Under the pieces are notes generated by a model. That model did no database searches, was not told the origin of the DNA, and was given only the letters and a program-made list of their open reading frames with translations. From Patescibacteria group bacterium (lineage in GTDB: Bacteria; Patescibacteriota; Patescibacteriia; UBA1558; GWA2-36-10), in assembly GCA_041650755.1 (NCBI GenBank), contig JBAZKN010000001.1:70796-134795 (forward strand): 64,000 nt of DNA, in the 5' to 3' direction. Position 1 is the stretch's first letter. Each line of letters opens with the position of its first letter. This document shows positions 6,516 to 63,945 of the stretch, piece after piece. A program made the translations under genes and the position numbers.

Positions 6516-7103
6516 TTATTTTTTCTTTTTAGCGGCTGATTTTTTTGGAGCAGTTTTTGCCTTTTTTTCTTTAGCTGGTTTTTTCGCCTTAATCTCTTTA
6601 ACCGTTGCTATTGGCTCTGTTTTTGTTACTGAATTTTTAGGTGCCAGGATTTTTATTAACTCGTCTATTTTGGCATTTAGTTTTTTGATCTCACTCATGA
6701 CATCCCCGGAATGTTGATTTATATTGCCGCCCTTACCAAAACAGTTATTACAATAAACCGGTTTGCCGGCAGTTGGCCGAAAAGGTATTTGGCAAGTCTG
6801 ACCGCATTTATCGCAAACCGCGTCATAAATTTGTTTACCGCCTCTATCACCACCGAATTTATTTGATCTGGCATTGCCGCCATCTTGTTTACCAAAGCAG
6901 TTACTGCAATAAATTGGTCGGTCACCAGTGGGCTTGAAAGGAACTTCGCAAGCATAGCCGCATTCACTGCAGATAGCTTTGTGCATTGTTTTAGCACCAT
7001 CTCGGCCGCCGAATCTTTTTCCGCCGCCAAATGATTTATTGCCGCCAAAACCACGATTAAAGCCACCCCCTTGGCGGTTGCGGTTTCTATCAAAATTTGC
7101 CAT
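6516..7103 (-). CDS. RGG-box / tandem CxxC(N17)CxxC zinc-ribbon / Lys-rich tail protein, a putative nucleic-acid-binding protein
   Basis: N-terminus GGGFNRGFGGNKSFGGGKRFGG; two copies of C-x2-C-x4-(V/I)PF-x-P-x5-P-(I/V)-YC-x2-CF; coiled-coil segment; C-terminal AKKPAKEKKAKTAPKKSAAKKKK. Confidence 0.75.
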   Translation of the reverse strand: MANFDRNRNRQGGGFNRGFGGNKSFGGGKRFGGRDGAKTMHKAICSECGYACEVPFKPTGDRPIYCSNCFGKQDGGNARSNKFGGDRGGKQIYDAVCDKCGQTCQIPFRPTAGKPVYCNNCFGKGGNINQHSGDVMSEIKKLNAKIDELIKILAPKNSVTKTEPIATVKEIKAKKPAKEKKAKTAPKKSAAKKKK

Positions 7104-7280: not shown

Positions 7281-7354
7281 TCGGGGATCGTCTAATGGTA
7301 GGACAGCGGCCTTTGGAGCCGTGAATCTAGGTTCGACTCCTAGTCCCCGAGCCA
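7281..7354 (+). tRNA. tRNA-Gln (anticodon TTG)
   Basis: Acceptor tcgggga/tccccga with U1-A72; U8; T-arm ctagg ttcgact cctag; anticodon loop ctTTGga; discriminator G plus encoded CCA. Confidence 0.85.
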
Positions 7355-7450
7355 AGCGAACGAAGTGAGCTTGGTTCGAAACTTCAAAGGATGCTCCGCA
7401 ATAGGCGGAGCAACCTAAGATGCTGCGCAATAGCGCAGCGCCCCGAGCCA
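7355..7450 (+). repeat. Reiterated tRNA-Gln 3'-end-derived unit with hairpins, copies R1 and R2
   Basis: atgctccgcaataggcggagc at 7391-7411 and atgctgcgcaatagcgcagcgCCCCGAGCCA at 7420-7450, which ends with the same 10 nt as the tRNA 3' end tccccgagcca. Confidence 0.7.
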
Positions 7451-7530
7451 TGCACCACCCATTCTCTCGCTATCACTCAATAATTTCGGGTGCATGGCAA
7501 AGCCACTGGGGTGAAAGGATACGTAGTGCA

Positions 7531-7613
7531 TGCAATGAACCCTAGCGTAGCGCATGGTTCATTGCAACAAAAACAAAATGATATGCTGCGCAATAGCGCA
7601 GCGTCCCGAGCCA
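7531..7613 (+). repeat. Third copy of the tRNA-3'-end repeat (R3) preceded by a perfect 11-bp hairpin
   Basis: tgcaatgaacc/ggttcattgca hairpin at 7531-7566; atgctgcgcaatagcgcagcgTCCCGAGCCA at 7583-7613, 30/31 identical to R2. Confidence 0.7.
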
Positions 7614-7695
7614 ATCAGTATGAGCATATAATCAAAAAAACAGAGTTGAAATCCCTGTTTTTATTTTTTATTGATAATTATAAAAATAAAAAAAG

Positions 7696-7736
7696 AGAGG
7701 TCTGTGGATGCGTGCGGCGCATCCAGAGCAGACCTC
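7696..7736 (-). terminator. Strong nested-hairpin rho-independent terminator for the minus-strand island B gene
   Basis: agaggtctg [tggatgcg tgcg gcgcatcca] gag cagacctct, followed on the minus strand by a T-rich run. Confidence 0.7.
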
Positions 7737-7765
7737 TCGAGTTCACAGCCACCCCTCAATCACTA

Positions 7766-7792
7766 GATGAGGGTGCAGAGGAGGAGTGGCTA
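7766..7792 (+). repeat. Left copy of a direct repeat bounding GC island B
   Basis: ATGAGGGTGCAG 12/12 identical and about 21/27 over the extended match to 9945-9971. Confidence 0.55.
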
Positions 7793-8143
7793 CGGCAGGT
7801 CTCCCAGCCAGCCGTCATCGCCGTATTCGGTCTCGATGTAGATCGAGACCAGACAGAGCCAATTGAACGCCGTCCGCGCCCAGTTGAACTCCTTGGCGGT
7901 CTCGCAGTAGATGCTGTCGAACACATCGGCCTGGGCGTTCGTCGGACCGATGATCGACATCATGCTCTCGATCGCGGTGATGACAGCGGTGGCCGGCGGC
8001 GAAGCGACAGCGGGCATCATCGTCGTCAGGACGATCTCGTTCGGCTGCGGCGGCATGGTCGCGTTGTGCTGCGGCAAAGGCACGGCCATCAAGACCGTGA
8101 TCGCCAGCGTGCACAAGCCGATCAAAACGACATTCCTCTTCAT
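7790..8143 (-). CDS. Small secreted protein (signal peptide) on GC island B, hypothetical
   Basis: RBS cgaggagaggaac before ATG at 8143 (MKRNVVLIGLCTLAITVLMAVPLPQ...); about 60% GC; track ORF trimmed to this start; the long plus-strand ORF 7490..8206 is an antisense artefact. Confidence 0.6.
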   Translation of the reverse strand: MKRNVVLIGLCTLAITVLMAVPLPQHNATMPPQPNEIVLTTMMPAVASPPATAVITAIESMMSIIGPTNAQADVFDSIYCETAKEFNWARTAFNWLCLVSIYIETEYGDDGWLGDLP

Positions 8144-8231
8144 GTTCCTCTCCTCGCGTTGGTGGGGAAGCTGGACGCAAATCAAAGAACCTGGGTTACC
8201 GGCTGATAGATTCCTCCTTTCCCGAGGGACG

Positions 8232-8921
8232 TTAGCGAAACAGAGCTGTTTGCCTGGGCGCTACGATGCCTGGGTCCAGCGCGATGCTGGCGACTTGAGC
8301 GCCGAGGTATCGGCGCTCTACTAGCACCCAGACGATCTTTTTGGTTCCGTCCGGCTCTTGCGTATTGAACGCATTGTTGCTGAACTCCACCACTTGCCTG
8401 CGGCTATCGCACAAAGGCTCTCTTCCTCTTTGTTCTTGGAAGCACAGAACGCCACTGTCGCTGACAGGGATGGTCGAAGAGTCAGCGGTCGAGATGTACA
8501 GGGTGATTGTGCCTCGGCGGAAGAGAATCTTGTAGTCGTCTGGCATGGTGATGGCCAGGCGATACACTACCAGGTTGGGGTTGGTGACCAACTTGGACAG
8601 GAGATAGTCGGAGCGGGGATGCGGGGTGATAGGCTTACCATCCGGGTCAACGCCAGTCATCAATTGCTTGATACCGGCCATAGATGCTGGGACACCGCGA
8701 TCCCTGAACAACTGGTCAAGCTCTTGTATGCGCCTGTCGTACCATTGCTTGGGATCGCCCCAGCCGCTGTTCATGGTAGAGAAGATCACGTCTGGAGTCA
8801 GGCTAGGTAGCGGAGTGTAGGTGATGTCCGTCGGCCTGCCAGCGATTGCCGCTGTGTCTAGCAGTCCAAGGCCGCAAAAGACAATCAGCGACAGGATGAG
8901 GAAAGCGACTCTTCTCAACAT
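8232..8921 (-). CDS. Secreted hypothetical protein (230 aa) on GC island B
   Basis: AGGAG RBS 7 nt before ATG at 8921; signal peptide MLRRVAFLILSLIVFCGLGLLDTAAIAG; about 60% GC. Confidence 0.65.
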   Translation of the reverse strand: MLRRVAFLILSLIVFCGLGLLDTAAIAGRPTDITYTPLPSLTPDVIFSTMNSGWGDPKQWYDRRIQELDQLFRDRGVPASMAGIKQLMTGVDPDGKPITPHPRSDYLLSKLVTNPNLVVYRLAITMPDDYKILFRRGTITLYISTADSSTIPVSDSGVLCFQEQRGREPLCDSRRQVVEFSNNAFNTQEPDGTKKIVWVLVERRYLGAQVASIALDPGIVAPRQTALFR

Positions 8922-9127
8922 GTTGGTACTCCTTCTGCCCCTTTGGGGCAATGAGGGGTTGCTTTTCAAAGAACCGATTGGCTGGCTTTTGGCCGCCATT
9001 ATGTCAACTCTCGTTAACTCTTTATATAAATACTTACGTGGTTTTTTGTCAAGACTTGACCTTTTGCATAGACAAAAACCCCACTAAGTGAGGCCTTTTA
9101 TCATTATTTGGGTTATTTTCTTGGGAT

Positions 9128-9207
9128 AAGTGCCGGTTACGCCACTAGCTCTTGATTACCTATTTGGCGTCCAAAATATGGATGGTAATCAGTCATTGCC
9201 TCACTTT
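9128..9207 (+). repeat. Structured repeat copy A: conserved 5' box, variable 7-bp stem, conserved loop
   Basis: gccggttacgcCactagctcTt / GATTACC ...ggcgtcca.aata... GGTAATC / agtcattgcctca. Confidence 0.7.
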
Positions 9208-9385
9208 TAGTATATTTTATATATACACCTTTTTCAAATATTTTGCAATACATGTATCTGAAGATAAGGAGGGGCCTGCCATGAACAGATAGAGAACTAG
9301 CTGTAGGCAGGCCCGGATGCTAAGTGTCAGATTTGGCACTTAGCCATGAGGATCAGTTTGGTAAGTGGTTGGAGGTTGGGGGGGG

Positions 9386-9793
9386 TCAGCAGGAGACGGC
9401 GAAGAAAGTCTCGATGTACTCGACAAAGCGCATGACGTTGAAAGGTTTGGACCAGAAAGGCACGCGATAGAGTTCTTGCAGGTGGCGGACTTGATCGGTG
9501 TGGTGGTGTCCAGTCAGGATGACCGAACACTTCTGAGACATCTCCATGTCATAAACCAGACCACAGAGCCAGCCGCCATCCACTTCGCTGGTTTCGGCGA
9601 TGATCACATCGGGGAATGGCCTGGTGCTGGCCAAAAGCCCGATGACGTCGACTGGGTGGAGCACCATCTTGGGGCTAGTGCTGCCCTTGGGCAGCACTAT
9701 GTTGGTCAGTACTTCGTGACCATTGCCTTCAAGAGCCTGGCACAGAGCGGTGATGGTGCTGTGGTCTTTGTCAAAAATGAAGATGCGCGACAT
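9386..9793 (-). CDS. Stand-alone atypical receiver (REC)-like protein with Glu replacing the phospho-acceptor Asp
   Basis: GGAGG RBS; IFIFDKDH (acid pocket), PDVIIAETSEVDGG (Asp to Glu), SVILTGHH (conserved Thr), WSKPF (conserved Lys); GC-rich. Confidence 0.55.
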   Translation of the reverse strand: MSRIFIFDKDHSTITALCQALEGNGHEVLTNIVLPKGSTSPKMVLHPVDVIGLLASTRPFPDVIIAETSEVDGGWLCGLVYDMEMSQKCSVILTGHHHTDQVRHLQELYRVPFWSKPFNVMRFVEYIETFFAVSC

Positions 9794-9944
9794 GGTCGTT
9801 GACCTCCTAGTCCCTTTATGGACTTCCTTGTGGTGATTGATTTACCATTCCCATTTGCTGAAAATGGCCAACAAGGCTTGCCAGACATCGTTGAACTTAT
9901 TCACGATTTTCTACCTCTGGTTGATGAGTAACAAAAAGACACCC

Positions 9945-9971
9945 AATGAGGGTGCAGGAAGGAGAGTAGCC
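9945..9971 (+). repeat. Right copy of the direct repeat bounding GC island B
   Basis: ccaATGAGGGTGCAGgaaggagagtagcca. Confidence 0.55.
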
Positions 9972-9980
9972 AAAAGCCAT

Positions 9981-10053
9981 TATGCCGGTTACGCTACTAG
10001 CTCCTAATCGTTCAAGCGTCCATATACAAACGATTATTCACAGCCTCATTTTG
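9981..10053 (+). repeat. Structured repeat copy B
   Basis: tatgccggttacgctactagctcct / AATCGTT caagcgtccatataca AACGATT / attcacagcctcatttt. Confidence 0.7.
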
Positions 10054-10133
10054 ATCCTCGATATATTGAAATGAACTTTAACAAAATACACCTCCCATTT
10101 AAGAGGCGTAACCGTTAAAGTCATTTTGACTAT

Positions 10134-10203
10134 TATGCCGGTTACGCTACTAGCTCCTGACCACCCAAGCGTCCATATACAGGTGGTCATTCATAGCCTC
10201 ATT
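10134..10203 (+). repeat. Structured repeat copy C
   Basis: tatgccggttacgctactagctcc / TGACCACC caagcgtccatataca GGTGGTCA / ttcatagcctcatta. Confidence 0.7.
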
Positions 10204-10269
10204 AGTGTATTATATTGTTAACAATTAGCAATATATCATATTACCCATATTTTGTCAATAGGGGATAAA

Positions 10270-11046
10270 TTATTCGTGAAAAAAGCGATTAGCTAAAAAT
10301 ACTATTACTAAGCCAATAAAAAACCAGATTAATTGTTGTAAATAGTGTTTGCTATTTTGTTGGTGTAAGCGCGGAATAATGTCTGATAAAGAAATATAAA
10401 GAAAAGAGCCGGTAGCCAAGGCAGTCAAGGCCAATTGATGAGATGCGCTTTGGCCATAAAAGAAAGCGCTGATGCCGCCCAGGACAGCCAACATGCCGGA
10501 AATAAAGTTAAAAATCAAGGCCTTGGTACGATTAAAGCCGGCATGTAGAAGTAAACTGAAATCACCGACTTCTTGGGGTATTTCATGTAAGGCAATAGCC
10601 ACCGTGGTGATAAGCCCGATATTGGTGCCCAGCATAAAGCTGGAAGCGATTACCATACCGTCAACAAAATTATGCAGACCATCACCGATCAGGACATTGT
10701 AGCCCATGGGGTGTATATTTTTTTCACTATCATGGTGATGGTGACAGTGGTGCCAATGTAAATATTTTTCCGCTAAAATAAATAATATAATCGAGACCAA
10801 AATCCAGGCCGATACGGTTTGAAAAGCATCGTTTTGGTTTTGGGCCTGGGACATGGACATGAGTTCTGGCAAAAGCTCAAAAAATACATTGGCCAGCAAA
10901 ACGGCTGCTGCCAGAGAAATGGTAGCTTCCATGATTTTTTGCGCCTTGGCTTTCTGGCTAAAAATAAACAAGCCAGCAAAAGACAGCAAGCTGACAAATA
11001 GAGTGGCAATAATGATATTTAGTAGAGTAACCATATTTTCTAACAT
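10270..11046 (-). CDS. zupT: ZIP-family zinc transporter ZupT
   Basis: HHCHHHHD loop; HEIPQEVGDFSLLL signature; multi-TM. Confidence 0.9.
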   Translation of the reverse strand: MLENMVTLLNIIIATLFVSLLSFAGLFIFSQKAKAQKIMEATISLAAAVLLANVFFELLPELMSMSQAQNQNDAFQTVSAWILVSIILFILAEKYLHWHHCHHHHDSEKNIHPMGYNVLIGDGLHNFVDGMVIASSFMLGTNIGLITTVAIALHEIPQEVGDFSLLLHAGFNRTKALIFNFISGMLAVLGGISAFFYGQSASHQLALTALATGSFLYISLSDIIPRLHQQNSKHYLQQLIWFFIGLVIVFLANRFFHE

Positions 11047-30627: not shown

Positions 30628-31063
30628 GGCTTAAGCTGACCCTGTAAGCCGAATTCTGTCTAGGATGATCATCTATCTAGGCCTAACATTGCTGTTAAGC
30701 TCAAGCGGTTTACCCGCCATACACCATATGGTGCATGACCTACTTAACCTTTCACCAAGTAGAGTTTGCCTCTTTTAGCTTGTCACCAAGCTAACGTGTC
30801 TAGTCATTACCAGACAATTTCACCCTTATCCACCTAGGCCGAAGCTTTGGCGGAAGGAATATTTTCTGTTGTACTTGTCCTGATCAATGGGTCACCCCTT
30901 TGATCGGTTGGCGTTACCAACTACTCTTTTATCGGTGTTCGGACTTTCCTCCCCGAACCACTCGCTTTGCTCGGGTATCAGGGCAGAACTCCTGAAATTC
31001 CCTTACGTGGTTAGCCATTTACCAGAGCAAGGCGAGTGGTTCGCGGCGATCATCTGGGCCAAT
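30628..31063 (-). ncRNA. rnpB: RNase P RNA (bacterial type A)
   Basis: Minus-strand sequence contains GGAAAGTCCGAACACC (P4), AGGGTGAAATTGTCTGGTAATGAC (P10/11 region), ACAGAATTCGGCTTACAGG (3' P4 strand), and P1 pairing of ggcttaa with ttaagcc. Confidence 0.8.
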
Positions 31064-63856: not shown

Positions 63857-63945
63857 ATGGGCGTAGCTCAGTCAGGATCCCGGCCGGAAAGAGCGCTGCA
63901 TTATCGGTGCAGAGGTCGCAGGTTCAAATCCTGCCGCCCATACCA
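63857..63945 (+). tRNA. Atypical 89-nt tRNA with a 13-nt palindromic D-loop insertion and nominal anticodon ATC (Asp codon GAU); isotype uncertain
   Basis: Acceptor atgggcg/cgcccat; U8; D-stem gctc/gagc enclosing agtcagg-atcccggccggaa-a; anticodon arm ctgca ttATCgg tgcag; T-arm gcagg ttcaaat cctgc; encoded CCA. Confidence 0.55.

Follow-up and report, generated by a model that had tools for sequence, protein, structure and literature searches.

What are the three similar repeats, each of about 80 nt, that precede GC-rich genes in this window (the whole 64-kb stretch of Patescibacteria DNA that we analyzed)? The copies lie at ~9128-9207 (copy A), 9979-10053 (copy B), and 10132-10203 (copy C) in plus-strand coordinates. 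Each has a stem that differs entirely from copy to copy and always pairs (GATTACC/GGTAATC, AATCGTT/AACGATT, TGACCACC/GGTGGTCA), as an initial annotation had pointed out. Copies B and C share 85% identity over 72 nt, with nearly all of the differences within the stem. The sequence boxes that had been described as common to the three copies hold for B and C, while copy A has inexact versions (GTGCCGGTTACGCCACTAGCTCTT, TGCCTCAC) and another, longer loop (TATTTGGCGTCCAAAATATGGAT). The sequence CGGTTACGC occurs four times in the 64-kb window versus 0.2 expected; three occurrences are on the plus strand inside the copies, and one is on the minus strand (10106-10114).

The best explanation overall is that the locus carries three c-di-GMP-II riboswitches, one tandem pair and one single, each with its own terminator; we put the probability of this reading at roughly 0.9. 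Along the minus strand, 5' to 3', its putative parts are as follows.

10230..10258, minus strand: promoter-like site (TTGACA, 17-nt spacer, TG-TATATT), identified by consensus match only, with 11/12 matches and an extended -10 TG
10127..10210, minus strand: predicted c-di-GMP-II aptamer 1 (copy C), P3 UGACCACC/GGUGGUCA; full-length RF01786 match, 65.5 bits
10106..10114, minus strand: putative antiterminator segment CGGUUACGC, which complements the aptamer-1 pseudoknot strand GCGUAACCG and overlaps the 5' arm of terminator 1
10077..10110, minus strand: predicted intrinsic terminator 1, UACGCCUCUU-AAAU-GGGAGGUGUA then UUUUGUU (10-pair stem plus T tract)
9974..10057, minus strand: predicted c-di-GMP-II aptamer 2 (copy B), P3 AAUCGUU/AACGAUU; RF01786, 64.1 bits
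9929..9955, minus strand: predicted intrinsic terminator 2, GCACCC-UCAUU-GGGUGU then CUUUUUGUU, from terminator scan and folding
9386..9793, minus strand: candidate regulated gene 1, 3' of the tandem pair, for a 135-aa stand-alone protein with a receiver (CheY-like) fold
9209..9237, minus strand: promoter-like site (TTGAAA, 17-nt spacer, TATACT), identified by consensus match only, with 10/12 matches
9122..9212, minus strand: predicted c-di-GMP-II aptamer 3 (copy A), divergent, P3 GAUUACC/GGUAAUC with a longer loop; RF01786, 43.3 bits
9071..9104, minus strand: predicted intrinsic terminator 3, CCUCAC-UUA-GUGGGG then UUUUUGU, from folding (missed by the simple terminator scan)
8232..8921, minus strand: candidate regulated gene 2, 3' of aptamer 3, for a 229-aa secreted protein with a signal peptide
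7790..8143, minus strand: possible third gene (117 aa, N-terminal hydrophobic segment, 61% GC), placed here by strand and proximity only

The first promoter-like site sits immediately 5' of aptamer 1, and the -10 box of the second abuts the 5' end of aptamer 3. The distances reported earlier to the downstream genes on the minus strand hold (~120-200 nt), as does the GC richness of these genes (55-61% versus 41% for the window).

Based on comparison with the Rfam model RF01786, all three repeats are almost certainly c-di-GMP-II-class aptamers read from the minus strand. This class was reportedly described by Lee et al. in 2010, and its crystal structure (3Q3Z) is said to be the work of Smith et al. 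in 2011. Copies C and B score 65.5 bits (E 2.1e-12) and 64.1 bits (E 5.2e-12), both above the curated gathering cut-off of 53.5 bits, and with the whole 64-kb window searched against 4227 families, E values of 2e-12 and 5e-12 put the pattern far above chance. Copy A also matches over the full length of the model, at 43.3 bits, which is below the cut-off (E 9.9e-8 in a 1.5-kb scan). Our own covariance model (R1) gives 99.3, 98.1, and 53.8 bits for copies C, B, and A, respectively. Covariance-model searching of the 64-kb window recovered these three copies only, all in leaders and all in gene orientation; the RF01786 matches fall on the minus strand only, and the earlier proposal that this is the functional strand was right.

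The shared sequence and structure are those of the class, with helices P1, P2, and P3 and a pseudoknot that joins the P3 loop to the 3' tail. The variable stem corresponds to helix P3, and the ligand-pocket pseudoknot would consist of the loop GGACGC paired with the 3' segment GCGUAACC, so that the conserved boxes base-pair with each other, a relationship that had been overlooked. P1 and P2 are closed by AUG-A-GGC with GCU...CAU. P1 is short and weak here, shorter than is usual for the class; in copies B and C, its contiguous pairing is limited to AUG/CAU. Among the core letters tested (GA, UGA, UGUAU-UGG, GGAG, AGU, and AACCG, which include the class-typical GA...UGA / GGAG core and AACC segment), copies B and C retain all strongly conserved ones except four. 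These four make up two pseudoknot pairs in which both partners differ (A-U in place of G-C, and G-C in place of A-U), which gives the window pseudoknot ACGC/GCGU versus the Rfam consensus GCAC/GUGC. Copy A deviates further in the 5' half of the P3 loop (the UGUAU segment) and through loss of a conserved G (GGAG to AGAG), and its P2, P3, and pseudoknot are all intact. In all three units, the element lies in a 5'-UTR with a terminator-based expression platform, and its aptamer and antiterminator pairings are mutually exclusive; the tandem pair consists of two such units, both complete and on one strand within a single leader, with aptamers at 10210-10127 and 10057-9974 and terminators at 10110-10087 and 9955-9939 in the terminator scan.

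Covariation among relatives bears on the same structure. We assembled 66 copies from 40 sources in an alignment fitted to the model, in which 92% of cells are paired, versus 77% after shuffling and at most 47.5% when partner columns were slid; the corresponding covariation scores are 0.473, 0.182, and at most 0.086. In these 66 copies, all eight P3 pairs change on both sides while 98% of P3 cells are paired, which bears out the earlier suggestion that the hairpin is selected for pairing. P2 is 100% paired, with one compensatory pair, and P1 is 74% paired, with compensatory changes in six of its seven pairs. The pseudoknot (GGACGC / GCGU..CC) is 100% paired at 6/6 pairs across ~60 sequences, and it also covaries, with one pair switching from A-U to G-C in five sequences.

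By class membership and context, the predicted ligand is c-di-GMP. The alternative with the most to recommend it, although still improbable, is that the same fold binds something else, i.e., that these are a Patescibacteria specificity variant whose ligand is a different dinucleotide, cyclic or linear, or a related metabolite. The pseudoknot is ACGC/GCGU where the consensus has GCAC/GUGC, and the Rfam clan (CL00127) includes two orphan variant families, c-di-GMP-II-GAG (RF03169) and c-di-GMP-II-GCG (names from PMC12452182), which share the overall fold and most core nucleotides with the window copies; lower-scoring clan matches overlap these copies. However, RF01786 is the top clan match for every copy, and each altered position has changed along with its Watson-Crick partner, which is ordinary covariation. 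Other conserved core nucleotides are kept, including the AA bulge of GCGU-AA-CC. The sole sequence in our set assigned to the GAG family (L010:1215-1308, the only member recovered) has AGU changed to AAU and GGAG to UGAG, whereas the window copies are canonical there (AGU and GGAG, apart from the AGAG of copy A).

Genomic context weighs on both sides of the ligand question. The receiver-like downstream genes are not a classic c-di-GMP regulon, and the surroundings of the Patescibacteria copies showed no c-di-GMP enzymes: motif scans for GGDEF, EAL, HD-GYP, and PilZ across the 64-kb window and 375 kb of related loci gave no relevant Patescibacteria match, and the small number of regex matches to EAL and PilZ are short and due to chance. 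Diguanylate cyclase genes have been reported in metagenome-assembled genomes of ultra-small cells (Patescibacteria, DPANN; PMC9938205). Against a variant ligand, aptamers with a similar GCG-type pseudoknot (GCGC rather than the GCGU of the window) lie 5' of GGDEF genes in other phyla (a GAF-GGDEF gene at L033, and L042), and at L018 one aptamer of the window's GCGU type lies directly 5' of a c-di-GMP-I riboswitch.

A second alternative, which we consider very improbable, is that the repeats do not sense a metabolite and instead work as a leader RNA that binds protein or as a small RNA acting in trans. Early stops at the three terminators would indeed release RNAs of ~100-130 nt able to act in trans. 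Since the repeats show every feature that defines this validated class of ligand-binding aptamers, no extra factor is needed, and any such role would supplement the riboswitch function, not supplant it.

The initial annotation had offered three candidates, a structured RNA leader, a DNA cruciform recombination site resembling integron attC, and a site for a structure-specific DNA-binding protein; the first stands, and the other two fall away. As an attC-like array bounding gene cassettes, the locus would share with integrons its recurring imperfect palindromes, their variable stems and conserved flanks, and their position beside genes of atypical, GC-rich composition; a tRNA gene with duplicated 3'-end fragments also lies nearby. 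The copies, however, lie 5' of genes, between a promoter-like site and a terminator, and not at the 3' ends of cassettes. They match on a single strand, that of the downstream gene, and their conservation fits an RNA model with a pseudoknot, which would be meaningless for a DNA cruciform. Related genomes preserve the gene order of the locus, Pfam revealed no integrase among the seven proteins compared with it, and nothing in the ORF list for 5.1-14.3 kb stood out as integrase-like. We therefore reject the cassette array and give the attC-like reading next to no credence. Equally negligible is a MITE or REP-like dispersed repeat: the copies are short, repeated, and intergenic and contain an inverted repeat, but that sole inverted repeat is internal, terminal inverted repeats and target-site duplications are both lacking, the three copies in 64 kb are all leader-located and gene-oriented, and they are far from near-identical, their wholly different stems around a conserved unpaired core being the opposite of recent transposition.

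Returning to the c-di-GMP-II riboswitches, we asked in which direction they would act. The scan places terminators 20-45 nt 3' of the aptamers, and each can compete with its aptamer. In the unconstrained fold of the first unit, the 3' core of aptamer 1 is taken up by pairing with the segment at 10106..10114, at the expense of terminator 1; the terminator forms once the aptamer core is sequestered. This is also the place of the 9-nt inverted repeat that had been thought to link copies B and C: the repeat is real, and instead of joining the two copies it belongs to the antiterminator, or expression platform, of copy C. In the second unit, the 5' arm and loop of terminator 2 (CCUCAUU, 9951-9945) complement AAUGAGG at the 5' end of aptamer 2 (10050-10044), and in the third, GCCUCACUU within terminator 3 (9094-9086) complements AAGUGAGGC at the 5' end of aptamer 3 (9206-9198).

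Two-state folding gave a terminator only when the aptamer core was blocked in all three window units. The same logic appeared in 34 of 59 distinct related units, with another 16 of the 59 forming the terminator in both states. Because the terminator folds only when the aptamer core is sequestered, all three are predicted to be OFF switches, an assignment that we favor with some reserve, as it derives from minimum-free-energy folding without kinetics. Without c-di-GMP, part of each aptamer would pair with the 5' arm of the terminator and act as an antiterminator, allowing read-through; this part would be the 3' pseudoknot strand in switch 1 and the 5' strands AAUGAGG and AAGUGAGGC in switches 2 and 3, respectively. 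With c-di-GMP bound, these segments would be locked in the aptamer, so that the terminator could form and transcription would stop. Placed in series, two such switches may make the receiver gene shut off more steeply and more digitally with rising c-di-GMP. In contrast to this predicted logic, the best-known c-di-GMP-II examples, those studied in Clostridioides difficile, are ON switches (PMC9495366).

The gene 3' of the tandem pair encodes a protein in which Glu replaces the phospho-acceptor Asp and a C-terminal AVSC is conserved (alignment). Pfam had no matches for the 135-aa, 229-aa, or 117-aa proteins. For the 135-aa protein, a profile search matched response regulator 6xvu (E 0.0018), the AF2 model has a pLDDT of 91, and the top Foldseek matches are all receiver domains (TM ~0.7-0.8); its receiver fold is seen only by profile search and structure. 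It belongs to a family of 14 proteins, and the three with source names come from two Patescibacteria and one unclassified bacterium. The candidate regulated gene 3' of aptamer 3 has an alternative upstream start at 8999 that would give 255 aa. Homology searching with its 229-aa product returned the self match only, and a single-sequence AlphaFold model was unusable (pLDDT 47).

Synteny extends the arrangement beyond this genome. The order ZIP gene, two aptamers, and 135-137-aa gene is kept in four of five sampled related genomes (L003, L005, L007, and L008), and the fifth (L002) lacks the ZIP gene. In L005 and L008, a third aptamer and a secreted-protein gene come next. Aptamer 3 has a close counterpart at L021:1587-1675, and proteins 24-43% identical to the 229-aa protein come after the third aptamer in L008 and L021. 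Aptamer doublets recur 5' of a small stand-alone receiver-like protein in ~20 related Patescibacteria loci; more generally, c-di-GMP-II riboswitches are common in Parcubacteria-type Patescibacteria, usually as doublets.

There is nothing out of the ordinary in the element itself, which is already cataloged; its host is the one slightly unusual aspect. The hosts usually cited are Clostridia and Deinococcota, and the class is covered in reviews (PMC9495366, PMC8976393). A routine Rfam scan detects it, so this is neither a new recombination site nor a new RNA family, and the annotation question is settled in that the "perfectly co-varying repeat" belongs to a textbook riboswitch class. Tandem c-di-GMP-II riboswitches have also been described as "pseudo-cooperative," with 59 doublets and 9 triplets that have separate expression platforms [Sherlock et al. 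2022, PMC9481103]. Like the pair here, the published tandems place two complete riboswitches of the same class, with their own platforms, in series before one gene; unlike it, most of them precede a surface-anchor gene (COG4932) in Paraclostridium and its relatives (PMC9481103), whereas the gene here is receiver-like. All that is mildly new is that a regulon of stand-alone receiver-like proteins is conserved in Patescibacteria, where the switches are coupled to these small proteins and not to adhesins or pili.

A broader and more speculative possibility, which we hold to be rather doubtful, is that the Patescibacteria doublets mark a conserved, lineage-wide, undescribed regulon of stand-alone receiver-fold proteins (mostly with Glu for Asp) and fast-evolving secreted proteins that would be turned off at high c-di-GMP. 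If true, ultra-small episymbiotic bacteria would possess a second-messenger circuit, perhaps linked to attachment or to changes of lifestyle, and its signal could come from the cell's own cyclases or from the host. The full-text literature collection searched contains no paper that connects riboswitches for c-di-GMP with Patescibacteria or the candidate phyla radiation; thus, the regulon could be a small, usable entry into the second-messenger signaling of these uncultured organisms.

Some smaller points concern the genes around the switches. A recent island insertion as the source of the GC-rich genes was considered and is unsupported, since both the genes and their GC excess recur unchanged at orthologous loci; an old insertion adjoining tRNA-Gln is conceivable. 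The 117-aa gene is possibly in the same transcription unit as the 229-aa gene. Gene callers can output spurious ORFs spanning the aptamers.

Three related repeat copies lie in 9128-10203 by sequence comparison within the window, each with a self-complementary stem of its own, as the initial annotation had described. Copies B (9979-10050) and C (10132-10203) share 85% identity, with nearly all differences inside the 7-8-bp stem, which is unlike between the copies and self-complementary in each. Copy A (~9128-9207) has the core CCGGTTACGC.ACTAGCTC plus GCCTCA in common with the others and its own stem pair, GATTACC/GGTAATC. Copy A also has a longer loop and several substitutions in its boxes, so the boxes described as common to all three copies are exact in B and C only. 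There are four occurrences of the 9-mer CGGTTACGC in the window (0.2 expected): three on the plus strand within the copies and one on the minus strand at 10106-10114, where it forms the additional 9-nt inverted repeat that had been noted.

The whole window was scanned against Rfam, with output of the best match per clan only (two variant families, GAG and GCG, share this clan). The scan returned two full-length minus-strand matches to RF01786, the cyclic-di-GMP class II riboswitch aptamer, both exceeding the curated cut-off of 53.5 bits. These matches bear out the suggestion of a structured RNA leader on that strand. The match to copy A comes from a permissive scan of 8900-10400.

10210-10127, minus strand: aptamer 1 (copy C), RF01786, 65.5 bits, E 2e-12
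10057-9974, minus strand: aptamer 2 (copy B), RF01786, 64.1 bits, E 5e-12
9212-9122, minus strand: aptamer 3 (copy A), RF01786, 43.3 bits, E 1e-7, full-length, below cut-off

In RF01786 alignments, helix P3 corresponds to the variable stem. The 3' box, AGCCTCATT, reads AAUGAGGCU on the minus strand and supplies the 5' strands of P1 and P2, and the central loop includes UGGACGC. The 5' box, GGAGCUAGUAGCGUAACCGGCAU on the minus strand, provides the 3' strands of both P1 and P2 together with the conserved junction and the pseudoknot strand GCGU-AA-CC. Relative to the consensus, copies B and C depart at four strongly conserved positions only; these make up two base pairs of the pseudoknot, each altered in both nucleotides (GCAC/GUGC to ACGC/GCGU). 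Both copies show every structural feature of the class that was tested. Copy A scores lower because the 5' half of its P3 loop and one G of GGAG also depart; it is a divergent but structurally intact class member, and L021, a locus from another genome, has a close counterpart. The single sequence in our set that Rfam assigns to the GAG variant (L010:1215-1308) has AAU for AGU and UGAG for GGAG, whereas the window copies are canonical there.

We built a covariance model from five copies, which detected 66 aptamers in 40 sources, with doublets at ~20 loci, and in the window the three copies and no more. In the 66-copy alignment, which was itself fitted to the model, 92% of cells are paired, vs 77% when shuffled and no more than 47.5% when the partners are slid. 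P3 is 98% paired and 8/8 of its pairs change on both sides, so the stems do co-vary in further copies; the sequence set was chosen by a 3'-core pattern, which cannot bias P3. P2 and the pseudoknot are 100% paired, the latter switching from A-U to G-C in five sequences. A cassette array of attC-like recombination sites, as the initial annotation had proposed for these hairpins, fails on position and integrase, and a miniature inverted-repeat element fails on terminal repeats and target-site duplications; the strand-specific pseudoknot signal is also unexplained by either. Many Patescibacteria copies (L002, L003, L005, L007, L013, L025, L030, L031, L039, and others in the aptamer alignment A3) have an extra 20-60-nt hairpin in the P3 loop directly 3' of the pseudoknot strand GGACGCUU; the window copies are without it.

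The element is therefore an already known riboswitch class in a known tandem arrangement. Earlier work reports c-di-GMP-II riboswitches in tandem, each with its own expression platform, in 59 doublets and 9 triplets, most of which precede surface-anchor genes in Paraclostridium (PMC9481103). c-di-GMP riboswitches are also statistically enriched in tandem arrangements (PMC12452182). What novelty is left concerns the Patescibacteria context and the receiver-like targets. Each aptamer is followed by a terminator-like hairpin, and two sigma-70-like sites lie upstream.

10258-10230, minus strand: sigma-70-like site upstream of aptamer 1, good match (TTGACA, 17-nt spacer, TG-TATATT)
10110-10087, minus strand: terminator-like hairpin and U-tract 3' of aptamer 1
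9955-9939, minus strand: terminator-like hairpin and U-tract 3' of aptamer 2
9237-9209, minus strand: second sigma-70-like site, upstream of aptamer 3
~9093-9074, minus strand: terminator 3 (CCUCAC-UUA-GUGGGG-UUUUU), 3' of aptamer 3

Each unit (aptamer plus terminator) was folded twice, free and with the aptamer core blocked as a mimic of the ligand-bound state. In the free fold, an aptamer segment pairs with the terminator 5' arm in all three units: the pseudoknot strand GCGUAACCG with CGGUUACGC (10114-10106), which is the 9-nt inverted repeat, in unit 1; AAUGAGG (10050-10044) with CCUCAUU (9951-9945) in unit 2; and AAGUGAGGC (9206-9198) with GCCUCACUU (9094-9086) in unit 3. With the core blocked, the terminator hairpin forms in all three. 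Without ligand, then, the aptamer segment would hold the terminator 5' arm, and sequestering the core would release the terminator hairpin. Since the terminator forms when the core is sequestered, thermodynamic folding only, without kinetics, predicts that all three are transcriptional OFF switches, two of which would act in series on the receiver-like gene. The same crude folding test gave this logic in 34/59 distinct related units, a terminator in both states in 16, and no clear terminator in 9.

Three minus-strand genes follow in 7790-9793, the last a 117-aa ORF after the 229-aa gene.

9793-9386, minus strand: 135-aa ORF downstream of the tandem pair
8921-8232, minus strand: 229-aa signal-peptide protein with no assigned function, downstream of aptamer 3

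The 135-aa protein has no Pfam match, but a profile of 14 homologues weakly matches response-regulator receiver domains (6xvu, E 0.0018), with the invariant Glu of the family aligned to the phospho-acceptor Asp. Its AlphaFold model is confident (pLDDT 91), and the PDB matches are receiver domains only (TM ~0.7-0.8). Beyond this Glu (AE67), the receiver-fold family (P0001-P0014) conserves a DGGWLCGL motif, and its C-terminal AVSC, with Cys as the last residue, is nearly invariant. The three genes are 55-61% GC vs 41% for the window and genome, and their leaders and riboswitches 41-46%. Orthologues in four related loci (L002, L003, L005, L008) show the same excess (45-59% vs 34-40% in neighbours), which marks it as an old or maintained trait and speaks against recent insertion of GC-rich genes. 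A 50-aa ORF at 10038-10190 (minus strand) spans the aptamers without interruption, and the peptide it encodes, CIWTLGWSGASSVTG, is a translation of the conserved core. Similar pseudo-ORFs occur elsewhere (L023, L035), and gene callers could report them as conserved hypothetical proteins.

The 135-aa protein has an exact match (100% identity) in a hypothetical protein on a 405-kb contig of a "Patescibacteria group bacterium" MAG. Of the 13 homologues of the 135-aa protein, two have source names (one from a second Patescibacteria MAG, one from an unclassified "bacterium"); the rest are metagenome proteins without them. The neighbourhood is largely syntenic in five related genomes, and in four (L003, L005, L007, L008) a ZIP transporter gene is followed by two c-di-GMP-II aptamers and then the 135-137-aa gene. 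A third aptamer comes next in L005 and L008, ahead of a secreted-protein gene; the L007 contig stops just past its third aptamer, and L002 is without the ZIP gene and third aptamer. Several MAGs titled "uncultured Gammaproteobacteria", namely L003/L015 (CAYRIU010000025.1) and other TPA MAGs, have this same syntenic locus of the Patescibacteria, with SpoU, a 541-aa gene, ZIP, the riboswitch doublet, and the receiver gene; their taxonomic labels are probably wrong.

A pattern scan with one genome per species gave 36 loci, the majority from Parcubacteria, Komeilibacteria, Uhrbacteria, and other Patescibacteria. Among first downstream ORFs, the largest cluster consists of small stand-alone receiver-like proteins (18 unique ORFs and, in addition, the window 135-aa gene); secreted proteins are next in frequency. 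Among five receiver-like proteins scanned, Pfam Response_reg was above cut-off in one and below in four; most of those under riboswitch control, including in other Patescibacteria, carry Glu at the acceptor site. Beyond the Patescibacteria, a similar pseudoknot occurs in aptamers upstream of a GAF-GGDEF cyclase gene in Desulfofundulus (L033), of a gene for a GGDEF protein (L042), and of a c-di-GMP-I riboswitch (L018). Such placements are classic signatures of c-di-GMP sensing; the pseudoknot strand is GCGU in L018, as in the window, and GCGC in L033 and L042. In L018 (Candidatus Howiella intestinavium, 7590-7786, plus strand), the c-di-GMP-II-like aptamer scores 59.5 bits with our model and is without P1, and the c-di-GMP-I riboswitch (59.6 bits) lies ~40 nt 3' of it, a mixed-class tandem for the same ligand.

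No GGDEF, EAL, or HD-GYP genes were found in the window or the fetched Patescibacteria loci; diguanylate cyclase genes are reported in ultra-small-cell MAGs generally, Patescibacteria and DPANN (PMC9938205). The literature searched, with partial coverage, yielded no link between c-di-GMP riboswitches and Patescibacteria or the candidate phyla radiation, so a Patescibacteria-specific c-di-GMP-II regulon may be undescribed.

Elsewhere in the window, the Rfam scan located ordinary housekeeping RNAs, and a zinc-finger protein gene adjoins a tRNA-Gln gene.

6516-7103, minus strand: 195-aa Gly/Arg-rich protein with two treble-clef zinc-finger repeats (PF23477, E 1e-32), adjoining tRNA-Gln
30629-31003, minus strand: bacterial class A RNase P RNA, 190 bits
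47627-47697 and 63857-63942, plus strand: two further tRNA genes

The 3' end of tRNA-Gln (7281-7354, plus strand), CCCGAGCCA at 7345-7357, recurs at 7441-7453 and 7604-7616, each time with a perfect hairpin GCTGCGCAATAGCGCAGC ahead of it, in a 40-nt repeat (88% identity, 163 nt apart). These extra copies, at the border of the GC-rich block, could be remnants of att sites left by integrations at the tRNA gene.
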